Position numbers and translations under genes: made by a program. A stretch of 32,000 bases of DNA from contig JAJRZD010000125.1 in the NCBI GenBank assembly GCA_024275415.1, forward strand, positions 1 through 32,000. The letters are read 5' to 3'. A model generated the notes under the pieces. It saw only the letters and a list, made by a program, of their open reading frames with translations. It did not search any database and had not been told where the DNA came from. The stretch is from an archaeon (lineage in GTDB: Archaea; Asgardarchaeota; Thorarchaeia; Thorarchaeales; Thorarchaeaceae). Numbering within the stretch: the stretch's first letter is position 1; every line of letters begins with the position of its first letter. This document shows, in pieces, positions 16,473 to 32,000 of the stretch.

Positions 16473-17117
16473 TCATCTTATCGCTTTCAGAGCTCTACTT
16501 GCAACGAACCAGCTTATGTTTCCGAGCATCTCGTGTGGGAGATAGAATATCGAATTTCTGTCAAAGAGCATACGGGCACTTGCTGGGAACTCCTCGTCAG
16601 CCTCTTCAAAGATTATGAGCACTTTTACCATGGGGAGAAAGGACAGCTCAAACCCTACATCTCCGTAGTCTACTCTCTTCGCACCTAACCGCTCGAATGC
16701 TGTATAGAGCTTCTCCCTATTCTCAATAAAAGCAGCAAGGAGTGCTTTGATGTCTTCTTCGTCAAATGAATACCTGCAAGCCCACGACCCTCTCAATGTG
16801 TTGAACTTCACCCATTCGTTCCCGATGCCCTTGTCCTTTGCCTTGCTGTAATAGAAGAGATATGGAATCAACCGGCTGGGTGATGTTTCTGTATTTGTAA
16901 ACGTATCGACAGTCCTTCCTGTTTCAAAATATAATCGGATACCAAGAATGTCCACATATTCGCTTCCCAGTCCAAAATGGTTCCTGATGGACTGGATGTC
17001 ATCCTTGAAATTCTCCCAGCTCCACATTGCTGAACTCGTATCGAACTGCTCGATGTCGTGCTTATGCGCTATCTCTCGCGCGACACCCATCCAATACTCT
17101 AGAATATCGTCCGGCAT
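16473..17117 (-). CDS. DUF3786-like protein
   Basis: C-terminal LSFLPMVKVLIIFEEADEEFPASARMLFD...LPHE resembles DUF3786; AGGTGA 6 nt before ATG. Confidence 0.75.
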   Translation of the reverse strand: MPDDILEYWMGVAREIAHKHDIEQFDTSSAMWSWENFKDDIQSIRNHFGLGSEYVDILGIRLYFETGRTVDTFTNTETSPSRLIPYLFYYSKAKDKGIGNEWVKFNTLRGSWACRYSFDEEDIKALLAAFIENREKLYTAFERLGAKRVDYGDVGFELSFLPMVKVLIIFEEADEEFPASARMLFDRNSIFYLPHEMLGNISWFVASRALKAIR

Positions 17118-17172
17118 AGAAAATCACCTACTCTGATACATCCGTTCCTATCAGTTTTTACAAACGCCATGC

Positions 17173-17964
17173 CTATTCCTTCTTGGCTTTCTCAGGTGCC
17201 GACCTGCAATCCTCAATTCCTGCAGCCTCGCATACAGCATAGCGTGCCTGATACCCTGCAACATGGAGGAGCGCATCACCGACTTCTCTATCCTTAGCCA
17301 TTGACGCCGTGCACGGGTATGCGTGATGGGCTTTAGAGATCACATCGAATAGGTCATCTGTATCTGCTATCGACCGTCCTCTGACCTTCTGGCTGACATA
17401 CCATGTACATCCGCAAGGAGCAGAACGTTTTGGCCCGATCTCGGCAATGATGTCGCCTTTCATGTCCACATAATGGATTGGTCGCCCTAGTCTGTACTGC
17501 TCGATGAACTCGTCAATCAAAGCACCTTCTCCTGGTTCGAGAGTACAGAATGGCTTTGGAAACGCGGATTCAATACCTATCTCATCAAGGGTTTCCTTGA
17601 CTTGCGCGCGCAAACCTGGGGGTATCCATGTTGGATCCTCGATTGGCGCCAAGACGGCTCTCGCACCTGTTATCTTGATCATGTGATCGACCGAAGCAAT
17701 GATGTCGTGGTGGATTGCGACAATCAATAGGAGGTCGCACTTTTCTAGCCCGATTTCGTTGATGTATTGCTCAGGGTCTTCGATAATGGTGGGTGAGGGG
17801 GGGTCAATGGGATAGATTCCCACAATATCGCCCACATAAGATCCATAGGTAGATCTGCATTCTGAGCAGCTAGGCTCACATGCCTGACAGAATGTCCGGA
17901 AGTTGATTAGGTTCCCTATAACTCGCTCAGCGAAGACATCGCCGTAAATGGTCGCTATTCGCAT
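17173..17964 (-). CDS. DUF166-like protein with Cys-rich insert
   Basis: FAERVIGNLIN, FPKPFCTL, RSAPCGCTWYV, HHAYPCTASM, GDALLHVAG; ATG 17964 lies 5 nt after AGGTGG. Confidence 0.75.
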   Translation of the reverse strand: MRIATIYGDVFAERVIGNLINFRTFCQACEPSCSECRSTYGSYVGDIVGIYPIDPPSPTIIEDPEQYINEIGLEKCDLLLIVAIHHDIIASVDHMIKITGARAVLAPIEDPTWIPPGLRAQVKETLDEIGIESAFPKPFCTLEPGEGALIDEFIEQYRLGRPIHYVDMKGDIIAEIGPKRSAPCGCTWYVSQKVRGRSIADTDDLFDVISKAHHAYPCTASMAKDREVGDALLHVAGYQARYAVCEAAGIEDCRSAPEKAKKE

Positions 17965-29490: not shown

Positions 29491-30674
29491 CCGAGCAAGA
29501 AAAGAAGACGACCCTAGATGAGATGTTCGGCGAGTTTGCTGAACTGGTTCTTGAGAATGTGACCATCGAACTGGACGAACTCAAGATTGCTCTCCGTCCG
29601 ATGATACAGCAAGTTGCTGCACAGGTCGCAAAGCCTGCACTTTCCTTACCAAAATCATTGATTCCAGCCAAGTTCGAACCACCATTCGGGGACTACAGCA
29701 CAAAAATCCATGAGGTCACGATTGGTGCGACCAAGGGCGAGGGAGGAACTCGCAGTAACTCGGTCACCATTGGCGGTCATGAGGCTCCTGCGTGGGATCT
29801 TTTCCAGTCCCCACCAAAGCATCCCCCGATAATCGCAGCGGATGTCTTTGACATGAAGATTTCCCTTGCCAAGGCGGTCAAGACGCATTATAAGGAGGTC
29901 ATGGAGGATCCTGCAGAGTGGGCAAAGCTCTGTGTGAACAAGTTCGGGGCTGATGTGATAACCCTTCATCTTATCAGTACCGACCGACAACTGAAAGACA
30001 CCTCTCCAAATGAGGCAGCAAAGACTATCGAAGAGGTATTGCAGGCTGTAAAAGTCCCTCTCTTGATCGGGTCTGCTGGTGACCCTGAGAAGGATGGTCC
30101 GGTTCTCGTGAAGGCAGCTGAGGTATGCGAGGGTGAAAGGACTCTCTTATGCTCGGCAACAGTGGATGTCTATGAGCCAATTGCTGAAGCTGCCAAGAAA
30201 CACGATCAGGTCGTACTCTCTTGGACTTCGCTGGACATCAATCAACAGAAGGAGCTCAATCGCCGACTCATTGATTGGTTACGCCCGGAACAAATCGTCA
30301 TAGATCCAACCACAGCGGCCCTGGGCTACGGTCTCGAGTATGCTTTCACTATGATGCAACGTATGCGTCTTGCTGGACTGCTTGGAGATAGTGAATTGCA
30401 GTATCCCATCAGCTCAGGCACCACTAATGCATGGGCGGCGCGAGAAGCGTGGTTGAAGGACGAATCACTAGGTCCACGGGAGTTGAGAGGACCGATATGG
30501 GAAAGTGTGACTGCACTTGCCTTGTTGCTGGCTGGCAATGACCTGTTCATGATGATGCACCCAGCAGCGATTAAGACTGTGCATGATCTAATAGATTGGA
30601 TGAAAGAGCGCAAGCCGGTCAAGGCGGATGACTATCCTGACTGGACCGCTATGGCTCTGCCGGAGGGAGTGTAA
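29487..30674 (+). CDS. cdhD: Corrinoid iron-sulfur protein small (delta) subunit
   Basis: EVTIGATKGEGGTR, DPAEWAK, DPTTAALGYGLEY, AWAAREAW, MMHP; ATGA overlap with cdhC. Confidence 0.96.
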   Translation: MTEQEKKTTLDEMFGEFAELVLENVTIELDELKIALRPMIQQVAAQVAKPALSLPKSLIPAKFEPPFGDYSTKIHEVTIGATKGEGGTRSNSVTIGGHEAPAWDLFQSPPKHPPIIAADVFDMKISLAKAVKTHYKEVMEDPAEWAKLCVNKFGADVITLHLISTDRQLKDTSPNEAAKTIEEVLQAVKVPLLIGSAGDPEKDGPVLVKAAEVCEGERTLLCSATVDVYEPIAEAAKKHDQVVLSWTSLDINQQKELNRRLIDWLRPEQIVIDPTTAALGYGLEYAFTMMQRMRLAGLLGDSELQYPISSGTTNAWAAREAWLKDESLGPRELRGPIWESVTALALLLAGNDLFMMMHPAAIKTVHDLIDWMKERKPVKADDYPDWTAMALPEGV

Positions 30675-32000
30675 ATGGCAAAGCTCGCAGGACCTTTGGA
30701 GATATACCCTCTTCTTCCTGGAACGAACTGCAAGGTATGTGGTGAAGCCAACTGCATGGCATTCGCTACGAAAATGGCTGAATACACGGTCAAGCTGAGG
30801 GATTGCACTCCTCTGTATGAGGAAGAACAATATGCTAAGAAACGTGTGAAGCTTGAGGAACTTATCCGTCCTCCGGTACGTGAAGTGACCTTCGGAACGG
30901 GTGAGAAAGCTGTGTCCATCGGGGGAAAGCTGGTTCTCTATCGACATGACCTGAGATACACAAACCCTACAGCATTCTTCATAGACATCTCTGACGCACT
31001 GGATGCAGACGCTTTTGCTAAGCGTGTGAGGGACATCGAGGAATGGACATACGTGTACATCGGACAGAACCTACGGCTTGATGGTATTGCTCTTCGGGGA
31101 GTATCGAAAGACCCACAGACATTTGCAAAGGCAGCAAAGAAGTTAGTCGAATTGACGGACTGGCCCATAATGCTGTGTTCGTTGGATCCCAAGATGCTCT
31201 CAGCAGCAGCCAATGCAATCGCTGATAAGAAACCTCTGCTATATGCCGCCACACTCGACACATGGTCTGAGGTTGGTGAGATTGCTGCGAAGCATGGGTT
31301 ACCTCTCGTGGCATACGTGCCAGGCAATCTGAATGACCTGGCTTCTCTCGCCAATACGCTACAGGCAATGGGCATCCATGACATTGTCCTTGACCCGGGC
31401 ACACTATCGCGTTCAGGTCTTGGGACTACAATCGATTGTTTCACGCAGCTTCGAAGGGCTGCAACGGTGAAGGACAATGATGTTATTGGCTATCCCCTTC
31501 TGTCTACTCCAATCTCTGTCTGGGCAGACTATAGAGAAGGTGAAGCTCCAGAGCTCACCAAGTGGGATGAGGTGCTTACGGCCGCATCAATGATAGTCCG
31601 CTATTCGGACATTGTGGTTCTCCACAGTCTGGACATGTGGACCAATCTCCCACTGACTTTCCTTCGAAGCAATCTCTACACAGATCCGGTGAAGCCAGTA
31701 GCCGTAGAACCTGGTCTGGTAAAATTCGGTGATGCAACATCTGATTCTCCTGTCATGTATACCACTAATTTTGCACTTACATATTTCACAGTGGAGAGTG
31801 ATATCAAGCAGGGGAATGTTGACACATGGCTACTGGTCGTAGACACAGAAGGAATGAGTGTCCAGTCTGCTGTTGCTGGAAGAAAGCTGACTGCTGACAA
31901 GGTAGCTGAGGCAATCCAAGAATATGATGTCGAGGAAAAAGTCAACCATCGTATTCTCATCAGCCCTGGTATGGCTGCCAGAATAAGTGGTGAAACCGAG
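30675..32000 (+). CDS. cdhE: Corrinoid iron-sulfur protein large (gamma) subunit; runs off the right edge
   Basis: Manual translation MAKLAGPLEIYPLLPGTNCKVCGEANCMAFA..., later YTDPVKP and TTNFALTYFTVESD; ATG directly after the cdhD TAA. Confidence 0.96.
   Translation, partial: MAKLAGPLEIYPLLPGTNCKVCGEANCMAFATKMAEYTVKLRDCTPLYEEEQYAKKRVKLEELIRPPVREVTFGTGEKAVSIGGKLVLYRHDLRYTNPTAFFIDISDALDADAFAKRVRDIEEWTYVYIGQNLRLDGIALRGVSKDPQTFAKAAKKLVELTDWPIMLCSLDPKMLSAAANAIADKKPLLYAATLDTWSEVGEIAAKHGLPLVAYVPGNLNDLASLANTLQAMGIHDIVLDPGTLSRSGLGTTIDCFTQLRRAATVKDNDVIGYPLLSTPISVWADYREGEAPELTKWDEVLTAASMIVRYSDIVVLHSLDMWTNLPLTFLRSNLYTDPVKPVAVEPGLVKFGDATSDSPVMYTTNFALTYFTVESDIKQGNVDTWLLVVDTEGMSVQSAVAGRKLTADKVAEAIQEYDVEEKVNHRILISPGMAARISGETE

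Follow-up and report, generated by a model that had tools for sequence, protein, structure and literature searches.

Gene content of the cluster

We examined the first 32 kb of a 41.9-kb contig (JAJRZD010000125.1; these 32,000 nucleotides are called the window here) from a Thorarchaeota genome (3.5 Mb, 92.9% complete, 127 contigs). Genes for an HdrA-type flavoprotein and for relatives of formylmethanofuran dehydrogenase (Fwd) lie there beside a set of genes for CO dehydrogenase/acetyl-CoA synthase (CODH/ACS). Gene calls came from an open reading frame listing together with family profile scans of the window proteins, and a genome-wide scan of exactly 10000 open reading frames covered all 127 contigs. 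An earlier reading of the letters alone (the original prediction) had named 13 genes here, as an electron conduit to CODH/ACS built from repurposed Fwd parts. All 13 are present, each where it had been placed, and a second cooC gene, absent from that layout, was found 3′ of cdhE.

The cluster diverges from an intergenic region (22197..22423) between the hdrA-mvhD and FwdG′ genes, which carries an AT-rich TATA-like box and is presumed to be a bidirectional promoter. To its right, on the forward strand, are the genes for the ferredoxin FwdG′ (157 aa; 22424..22897), the FwdB-like protein B* (433 aa; 22898..24199) and CooC1 (24196..25002), a CooC-type P-loop ATPase (PF01656, with NifH-like matches) with a CxC motif at residues 119/121. 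The FwdG′ and B* genes abut (0 nt), and the cooC1 start overlaps the B* stop by 4 nt (spacing −4 nt), in agreement with the claim that cooC is tied to the fwdG-fwdB unit. The B*-CooC1 spacing is at most 26 nt in four Thorarchaeota loci (L006, L008, L049, L050) and 65–1022 nt in Hermodarchaeota. To the left, on the reverse strand, are the genes for an HdrA-MvhD fusion flavoprotein (795 aa; 19809..22196) and a FwdF-type polyferredoxin (475 aa; 18455..19882), and beyond these, on the forward strand, is the gene for D* (135 aa; 18091..18498), a FwdD-like cap subunit (PF01568, E 2.7e-10). A scan for bacterial sigma-70 promoters and terminators gave chance-level counts, and its model does not apply to archaea. 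The locus has no hdrB/C, hydrogenase or fdh gene.

The HdrA-MvhD protein scores 899.6 bits against the HdrA2 model NF040770 (span 2–775 of 777), under the cut-off of 1100, and matches FlpD (PF02662, E 3e-45) and the PDB chains 8RVU_a of HdrA (598 bits) and 8RVU_F of MvhD (E 1.5e-37). The sequence contains a GGGVAG motif for FAD together with four copies of CxxCxxCxxxC. By its sequence the protein shares the HdrA2-type architecture but, falling under the cut-off, is not an equivalog. The polyferredoxin (NF042909 FwdF, 225 bits) has 33 Cys in eight [4Fe-4S] motifs and a charged C-terminal tail, and aligns end to end with FwdF of Methanothermobacter wolfeii (5T5I_F; E 3.8e-47, residues 40–386), far better than with MvhB. 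Comparison with orthologues puts its true start probably near residue 16–28.

FwdG′ had been taken for a plain FwdG, but the gene is a fusion (PF04060 plus Fer4). Its first 60 residues form the PF04060 iron-sulfur (Fe-S) domain that CdhE/AcsC and RnfB also have at their N-terminus, and this half matches the gamma subunit of the corrinoid Fe-S protein (CFeSP; 2H9A_A, E 3e-7). The C-terminal half resembles FwdG, matching the chains 9SFI_U (E 5.9e-8) and 5T5I_G (E 1.3e-6) with the FwdG-specific insert included. In 27 Asgard sequences twelve Cys never vary, a number sufficient for three clusters, and FwdG′ is the most conserved gene of the module, with 78–90% identity across the family. Prediction of a FwdG′-CdhA complex scored 0.00 in both runs, which, made without controls, counts neither for nor against contact. 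The components of the Fe-S wire are intact as predicted: HdrA, MvhD, the eight FwdF motifs, the FwdG part and the cluster Cys of B* are all kept.

Downstream of cooC1 are cdhA for the CODH alpha subunit (25144..27534, +), cdhB for the epsilon subunit (27537..28082, +; PF02552, E 1.8e-20), cdhC for the beta subunit carrying the A-cluster (28084..29490, +; PF03598, PF19436), cdhD for the delta subunit (29487..30674, +; PF03599, E 2e-64) and cdhE for the gamma corrinoid Fe-S subunit (PF04060, PF03599), which starts at 30675 (+), runs to the window end at 32000 and ends at 32090 of the contig. CdhA scores 1075.7 bits against TIGR00314 (cut-off 781.3) and 875.8 bits against the alpha chain 8RIU_A of acetyl-CoA decarbonylase/synthase (ACDS). 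Its short motifs GHN, CCTA, DEQC and GSCV, presumed cluster-ligand motifs, are identical to those of 8RIU_A, in line with the expectation of intact CODH cluster ligands. Orthologues of CdhA have stop codons upstream, which points to Met16, at about position 25189, as the probable start. Selenocysteine was considered for the in-frame TGA codons of CdhA orthologues and rejected, since these codons are located upstream of Met16 and are plain stops. The cooC1-cdhA spacer (25003–25188) has 141 nt, or about 186 nt to the probable cdhA start, and contains an AT-rich box. Four other Thorarchaeota loci have spacers of 83–184 nt at this place, and an internal promoter or a regulatory element may lie here.

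CooC2 follows cdhE at 32243–33058 of the contig. At the other end of the cluster are reverse-strand genes for a DUF166 protein with a CxxCxxxCxxC insert (17173..17973; PF02593, E 3e-48) and a DUF3786 protein (16473..17117; PF12654, E 4e-26), a conserved accessory gene that is single-copy in the genome and also found in L006, L008, L049, L050, L059 and L061. With five Cdh subunits, two CooC paralogues and DUF166, the archaeal ACDS and accessory set is full.

B* and the class II FwdB lineage

B* scores 249.4 bits against the FwdB model TIGR03129, under the curated cut-off of 327.8, and has no Pfam match; the canonical FwdB encoded on contig C113 of the same genome scores 552 bits. When B* was aligned with this protein and M. 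wolfeii FwdB, Gly-Thr was found in place of Cys118-His119, Phe in place of Arg288, and PMFTEPN in place of the motif PMRGHYN. The residues for CO2 reduction are gone, in agreement with the loss of the CO2-reducing site in the original prediction. The N-terminal [4Fe-4S] motif CxxCxxxC...C is intact, its four Cys invariant among orthologues. Gly occupies the position of the ligand Cys in 97% of 118 Thorarchaeota B* orthologues, and the next residue varies (T/A/P/L/V). An AlphaFold2 model of B* (pLDDT 90.3) superposes on FwdB/FmdB structures (8RJA_B, 5T5I_B, 7BKB_H) with TM-scores of 0.89–0.92.

B* is clearly a selected protein, under purifying selection. Orthologues in more than 120 clusters, at 45–63% identity, keep the reading frame open, and pairwise dN/dS (NG86, pairs with dS 0.05–1.5) is 0.125 for B* (range 0.08–0.15), compared with 0.036 for FwdG′ and 0.066 for CooC1; B* evolves 2–3 times as fast as its neighbors. 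The open frame and a dN/dS of about 0.12 rule out a decaying pseudogene. The original prediction named, as what would refute it, a canonical fwdB elsewhere that uses this FwdF/G/D while B* is unexpressed or evolves neutrally; such a fwdB does exist on another contig, but B* is not neutral, so that only half of this applies.

Thorarchaeota B* retains 32 of the 60 positions that are fixed in canonical and class II FwdB (the latter described below) and has altered 28. The Cys ligands, LCDD, the W/P/R of YWGxNP..RH, VVDxR, F/YGxG, PM..N..G and R..D are among those kept, as is a basic residue (R/K) after the fourth cluster Cys. The polar positions R162, D188, R190, D209, N295, R398 and D400 (canonical numbering) are kept at 98–100%; from their place in the sequence, not from a structure, we take them to belong to nucleotide-binding-type motifs. 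An 11-residue segment is deleted in 86% of the Thorarchaeota orthologues. With so many ancestral positions still in place, VVDxR, F/YGxG and the R/K that follows the fourth Cys among them, B* may have retained the pterin. D* scores 60 bits against the FwdD model (cut-off 175); its counterpart of the canonical TGR...Q reads T-H-D...S-D and that of GPWAN reads GPWAL. The decay of these motifs is graded in the alignment from canonical through class II and Hermodarchaeota forms to Thorarchaeota.

We aligned Asgard homologues of FwdB and found three grades: canonical FwdB with Cys-His and Arg, a form here called class II, and forms without the Cys. Class II FwdB is always encoded after a FwdG′ gene and keeps Cys-His, but has Ala, Ile, Ser or Glu in place of the Arg; its carriers are metagenome-assembled genomes (MAGs) labelled Freyarchaeota, Jordarchaeia, Hodarchaeota, Helarchaeota, Promethearchaeota and Bathyarchaeota. 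Among the Cys-less forms, each of the ten Hermodarchaeota-type sequences examined has Glu-Tyr, and those of Thorarchaeota have Gly followed by a variable residue. In a FastTree phylogeny, whose branch supports were not inspected, Thorarchaeota B* is sister to the Hermodarchaeota form and nested within the Arg-less class II clade, and an origin of B* as a recent duplicate of canonical fwdB was rejected on this placement. B* and D* accordingly descend from a separate, already Arg-less class II FwdB/D/G′ lineage, which is widespread in Asgard archaea and Bathyarchaeia. The phrase "repurposed Fwd parts" is thus right as to derivation from the Fwd family and wrong in implying canonical Fwd as the source, since alignment and tree both point to class II descent.

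Class II genes were found in three contexts. The first is an operon of D, a FwdA-like gene, FwdG′ and B (L042, L046; only FwdG′-B matched in L044 and L047). The FwdA-like proteins of L042 and L046 (families f15/f16) have about 510 aa and score 197–242 bits to canonical FwdA; their FwdB has Cys-His without the catalytic Arg, and these genomes also carry a second, separate FwdB-like match. This operon may encode a distinct enzyme. In the second context, bare D-FwdG′-B triads with Thr-Thr or Tyr-Lys at the active site stand on the metagenome contigs L065 and L066, neither of which contains hdrA, fwdA or cdh; L066 is probably Asgard, from its Ras/Arf-type GTPase genes. In the third, the genes are joined to those for HdrA-MvhD and polyferredoxin beside cooC/cdhA, and here families f6 and f28 still have Cys-His. 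The f6 locus (L043) has FwdG′, B, HdrA-MvhD and polyferredoxin genes in one co-directional run with abutting or overlapping ends, which suggests that the products form one complex.

An exhaustive search of 1.84 billion representatives yielded 667 relatives, many with the four cluster Cys and a non-Cys "active site"; B* is therefore one branch of a wide, largely unstudied radiation. Two Bathyarchaeota MAGs (L086, L087) contain relatives at 34–35% identity to B*, one with Cys-His and no Arg and the other with Tyr-Tyr, so that class II and Cys-less forms reach beyond Asgard archaea. A survey of the dimethyl sulfoxide reductase superfamily, in the sections cited here, counts 83 FwdB homologues in Asgard MAGs and includes some FwdB-family members without the Cys; those sections give no account of the present cluster (PMC10100899).

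Association with CODH/ACS and the canonical Fwd genes

The full order D*, polyferredoxin-HdrA, FwdG′-B*-CooC1-cdhABCDE-CooC2 recurs in Thorarchaeota SMTZ1-45, L008, G320 and G328. Hermodarchaeota share the left part through CooC1, plus cdhA-D where the retrieved stretch reaches that far. The order is not a matter of chance, because it is the same in the two groups at 35–63% B* identity.

Profiling of B* against cdh, suggested by the original prediction, revealed joint gain and loss among 86 genomes belonging to the family. CdhA turned up in 46 of them, polyferredoxin in 45 and FwdG′ in 44, and all of these, like the B* orthologues, fall in the same five genera. The other eleven genera have no module proteins, g5 among them having a divergent CdhA fragment. 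Canonical FwdB is retained in seven of these eleven genera and in one g14 genome. In genus g11, six genomes, one of them 99% complete, are without CdhA, polyferredoxin, FwdG′ and B* all together, and four of the six keep canonical FwdB. Apparent exceptions to the profile trace to genomes that are incomplete, to the ends of contigs or to a separate paralogue comprising CdhAB only (L060, L062). Beside this last, a second cdhA-cdhB pair (in G375 and G377, respectively) with about 80% identity to the window CdhA, neither cdhC-E nor Fwd-like module genes were matched, a pattern suggestive of a stand-alone CODH.

The closed Thorarchaeota chromosome CP070658.1 (G368) has no CdhA anywhere in the genome. 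Its hdrA-mvhD is split into residues 1–480 and 532–777, lying 140 kb apart (L058/L059, at ~1.583 and ~1.442 Mb), and the homology of its B* extends no further than residue 188; the genes for FwdG′, polyferredoxin, D* and DUF3786 remain. This looks like decay after loss of cdh, and could alternatively be rearrangement or misassembly.

Elsewhere in the genome of the window, contig C113 carries a canonical fwdD-fwdB-fwdA operon with no fwdF or fwdG of its own, the FwdB of which has the motifs SVCHGP and PMRGHYN. The fwdA of this operon is the only one in the genome, and the sole fwdC is on C118, divergent from ftr; B* has neither beside it. Pyruvate dehydrogenase E1 alpha/beta genes adjoin the canonical operon (L004 12025–13974, +), and a SAM methyltransferase gene takes the place where fwdC would be expected. 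Each of B*, D*, FwdG′, polyferredoxin, DUF166 and DUF3786 is single-copy genome-wide. About 10 HdrA paralogues, about 20 HdrB-like CCG proteins and several [NiFe] hydrogenases are encoded on other contigs, often side by side. Canonical FwdB appears independent of the polyferredoxin and FwdG′, because it persists in many relatives that have neither.

Genes upstream of 15.2 kb are housekeeping genes unrelated to the module. Between them and DUF3786 lies a gene for a GFO/IDH/MocA-family NAD(P) oxidoreductase (15203..16261, −; PF01408/PF22725/PF02894), which holds the same position in the Thorarchaeota loci L006, L008 and L050 and is not found in the Hermodarchaeota loci; its membership in the system is uncertain. 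A glutaredoxin domain fused to a pyridine-nucleotide-disulfide oxidoreductase is encoded at 13834–15093 of the window (−). Either protein could be a candidate thiol/disulfide or NAD(P)H partner of the module. On the far side, CooC2 is followed by an acetyl-CoA hydrolase/transferase-GNAT gene (contig 33972–35861).

A possible role in electron transfer

The closest solved relatives of the window proteins are chains of methanogen Hdr-Fwd/Fmd supercomplexes (Fdh-Hdr-Fmd, 7BKB; the Mvh/Vhu-Hdr-Fwd complexes 9SFI and 9SW6; M. wolfeii Fwd, 5T5I). Shared with these are HdrA and MvhD, the FwdF polyferredoxin, the FwdG ferredoxin, and FwdB and FwdD as a pair that has a [4Fe-4S] cluster at the N-terminus. 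The module differs in that its locus has no hdrB/C, hydrogenase, fdh or fwdA/C, its FwdB is without Cys, His and Arg, its FwdG has an extra CdhE/RnfB-type domain, its MvhD is fused to HdrA, and its linkage is to cooC-cdhABCDE rather than to methanogenesis genes. Methanosarcina HdrA2 works with HdrB2C2 and F420H2. In M. acetivorans, HdrA2 (MA2868) is encoded beside a polyferredoxin (MA2867) (PMC9012536); this HdrA-MvhD fusion architecture and accompanying polyferredoxin are the same as here, except that the protein of the window scores below the HdrA2 family cut-off and that no FwdB/D-like genes or cdh are reported beside the Methanosarcina pair.

Loss of catalytic residues from molybdopterin-family proteins has precedents. 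FhcB of the Methylorubrum extorquens FhcABCD complex (6S6Y) is a FwdB homologue without the catalytic Cys, His and Arg that serves as a scaffold; it has no N-terminal Fe-S domain and no FwdD partner (PMC6926001). Its loops fill the pterin site and its gene order is fhcBADC, whereas in the present module the Fe-S domain and the D subunit persist, alongside redox-protein partners. The nearest published idea concerns type II HdrA-MvhD-FdhB clusters of Methanosarcinales and of ANME-2/3, for which sequence and models led to the proposal that a Cys-less "Molybdop" protein has a structural and not a catalytic place in a bifurcating complex (PMC12054007). The Molybdop protein is FdhA/FdhG-like and pairs with FdhB (F420), whereas B* is FwdB-like and would pair with D*, FwdG′ and FwdF; the module also differs in its linkage to CODH/ACS and its occurrence in Asgard archaea. 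Nqo3/NuoG of complex I, among the structural matches of the B* model, likewise has a molybdopterin-oxidoreductase fold that lost the cofactor and kept Fe-S clusters, but it is distant from B* (TM ~0.65–0.7, 12–15% identity), formate dehydrogenase-derived and part of a membrane complex. The literature searched, open-access only, yielded no account of the Asgard HdrA-FwdF-FwdG′-B*D*-cdh cluster, which is no proof of absence.

For the accessory genes the best parallel is Methanococcus maripaludis, where the DUF166 gene beside cdh/cooC2 shows cofitness with cdh and its deletion abolishes autotrophy, DUF166 and the second CooC are genetically required for CODH/ACS-dependent autotrophy, and the cdh operon encodes its own ferredoxin (bioRxiv 10.1101/2024.03.05.583561). 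There as here, two CooC, DUF166 and a dedicated ferredoxin-type protein flank cdh, which fits an accessory character for the genes around cdh in the window. By this analogy DUF166 is probably a CODH/ACS accessory factor. The M. maripaludis ferredoxin, unlike FwdG′, is a simple PorE/F-like protein with 2x[4Fe-4S], and the locus has no HdrA, polyferredoxin or FwdB/D-like genes.

Our preferred reading, to which we give a probability of about 0.45, is that the locus encodes a soluble electron-transfer unit serving CODH/ACS, composed of the HdrA-MvhD flavoprotein, the eight-cluster FwdF, the three-cluster FwdG′ and the B*/D* pair, with B*D* acting as scaffold or relay and not in CO2 reduction. By homology with the methanogen Hdr-Fwd supercomplexes, low-potential electrons would pass from HdrA through the polyferredoxin and FwdG′ to the cluster of B*. 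In Thorarchaeota and Hermodarchaeota this wire would no longer end in a CO2-reducing tungsten or molybdenum site, and B*D* would anchor FwdG′ and FwdF. The branch served would be the carbonyl branch of the Wood-Ljungdahl pathway, very low-potential electrons being given to CODH/ACS or taken from it; flow could run either way, in reductive acetogenesis or in acetyl-CoA/CO oxidation. The extra CdhE-type domain of FwdG′, probably mobile, is a plausible hand-over point to the partner. CODH/ACS is taken as that partner because of synteny and co-loss. The same evidence partly supports the proposal that the wire leads to CODH or the corrinoid protein; a physical or electron-transfer link to CdhA or CdhE would go beyond it. 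Gene order alone bears on subunit association and on a putative bifurcation activity, the co-directional L043 run suggesting one complex; we infer the five-protein complex, the direction of electrons, the donor and the high-potential acceptor of HdrA and any contact with CODH/ACS.

Several points weigh against this reading. It would be odd for a wire to stop at the B* cluster, past which there is no catalytic site, and B* may have kept a pterin cofactor, the sequence signals being mixed (32 of 60 positions kept, D* motifs degraded). The family profile overstates the number of events, as related genomes are not independent, and is to be read as several co-losses, not dozens. A module that served the reductive pathway as a whole, and canonical Fwd with it, would be expected to be lost along with cdh in just the same way. 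An f22 genome (G189) and an f30 genome (G308) have CdhA without the polyferredoxin, and in f15 and f16 the polyferredoxin is far from cdh; CODH/ACS therefore does not need the module in general. Canonical fwdB lies 10–16 kb from B* on the same contig in G317 and G352, and fwdA abuts the cluster in L008. Finally, with a spacer and AT-rich box before cdhA, co-transcription of B*, cooC1 and cdhA is only putative. A search for public sequencing runs that contain positions 18000–27500 of the window listed none.

The most probable of the alternatives, though an unlikely one, is that an Asgard Hdr-Fwd supercomplex feeds the canonical FwdABCD, B*D* is an extra docking or regulatory pseudo-subunit, and the adjacency of cdh reflects a Wood-Ljungdahl supercluster. 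The canonical fwdD-B-A operon would then draw on the genome's only polyferredoxin and FwdG′, having no fwdF/fwdG itself; polyferredoxins link HdrA to Fwd in the solved methanogen complexes; canonical fwdB or fwdA is within 10–16 kb of the cluster in G317, G352 and L008; and co-loss with cdh would follow if Fwd needs bifurcated electrons only in the reductive direction of the pathway. Yet seven genera and several g11 genomes keep canonical FwdB without polyferredoxin, FwdG′ or B*, the tight gene coupling is to cooC-cdh and not to fwdA/C (the canonical fwd genes being on other contigs here), and retention of a degenerate B*D* under selection is left unexplained. A stronger form of our preferred reading, an "Hdr-ACDS" supercomplex in which HdrA-MvhD is hard-wired through FwdF, FwdG′ and B*D* to CODH/ACS with no free ferredoxin, is doubtful to the same degree.

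Somewhat less probable again is that B*D* is still a W/Mo-pterin enzyme of unusual coordination, with no protein ligand in Thorarchaeota and Glu in Hermodarchaeota, catalysing another redox reaction as the donor or acceptor site of HdrA. Some pterin enzymes do without any protein ligand (arsenite oxidase) and others have a carboxylate as ligand (Nar-type), and conservation of the replaced position itself (Gly in 97% of Thorarchaeota, Glu-Tyr in 10/10 Hermodarchaeota-type sequences) is what such an enzyme would lead one to expect, together with the many polar positions kept at 98–100%, the basic residue after the fourth Cys and the retained FwdD-like cap. It is harder to reconcile with the loss of His119, Arg288 and the following Gly-His, the free variation of the residue after the Gly, the 28 of 60 ancestral positions changed, the 11-residue segment deleted in 86% of Thorarchaeota orthologues, the missing TGR...Q and GPWAN motifs of D*, and a rate in B* 2–3 times that of its neighbors; similar changes are seen in FhcB and in the Molybdop proteins of Methanosarcinales, which are considered to lack the cofactor.

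We consider it improbable that the module, with the two CooC, DUF166 and DUF3786, reductively activates or matures CODH/ACS (re-reducing Co(II) corrinoid or Ni centres) without supplying bulk catalytic electrons. In its favor are the translational coupling of B* to CooC1 and the wealth of accessory genes in the cluster, of which DUF166 and CooC2 are needed for CODH/ACS in M. maripaludis; no RACo-type activator was noticed in the cluster. FwdG′ also shares its Fe-S domain with CFeSP, where this domain relays electrons to the corrinoid. However, the FwdG′ fusion also partners class II FwdB in operons without cdh (L042, L044, L046, L047, L065, L066), so its N-terminal domain is not specific to the corrinoid protein; an eight-cluster polyferredoxin and HdrA are heavy equipment for occasional repair, and other Asgard lineages mature CODH/ACS without the module.

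The original prediction's own alternative, that B*D* with FwdA and FwdC makes an Fhc-like hydrolase complex releasing or taking up formate, is very improbable: the loss of Cys, His and Arg does parallel FhcB (matched by the B* model at TM 0.68/0.81), the genome has FwdA, FwdC and Ftr, and class II B shares an operon with a FwdA-like gene in two other Asgard families (L042, L046), but B* keeps the N-terminal Fe-S domain and FwdD partner that FhcB lacks and is coupled to a three-cluster ferredoxin, the single fwdA sits with canonical fwdDB, the conserved cluster has no fwdA, fwdC or ftr, and the module is lost with cdh, not with fwdA-linked genes.

The source of the very low-potential electrons for CO2 reduction by the Wood-Ljungdahl pathway is an open point in models of Asgard energy metabolism, which in turn feed syntrophy scenarios for the origin of eukaryotes. 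A conserved, selected module joining an HdrA flavoprotein to CODH/ACS genes through recycled Fwd parts is a concrete and testable candidate for that source. B* would be the third molybdopterin-family enzyme, after FhcB and the Methanosarcinales Molybdop protein, to have independently become a pseudo-enzyme, in this case an Fe-S-bearing one in a redox complex, and it belongs to class II FwdB/D/G′, a wide and so far unstudied lineage, documented here, whose active sites vary. If true, "Hdr-ACDS" would be the acetogenic counterpart of the methanogen Hdr-Fwd supercomplex, bringing bifurcated low-potential electrons straight to a CO2/CO site, in a lineage near the archaeal ancestor of eukaryotes.

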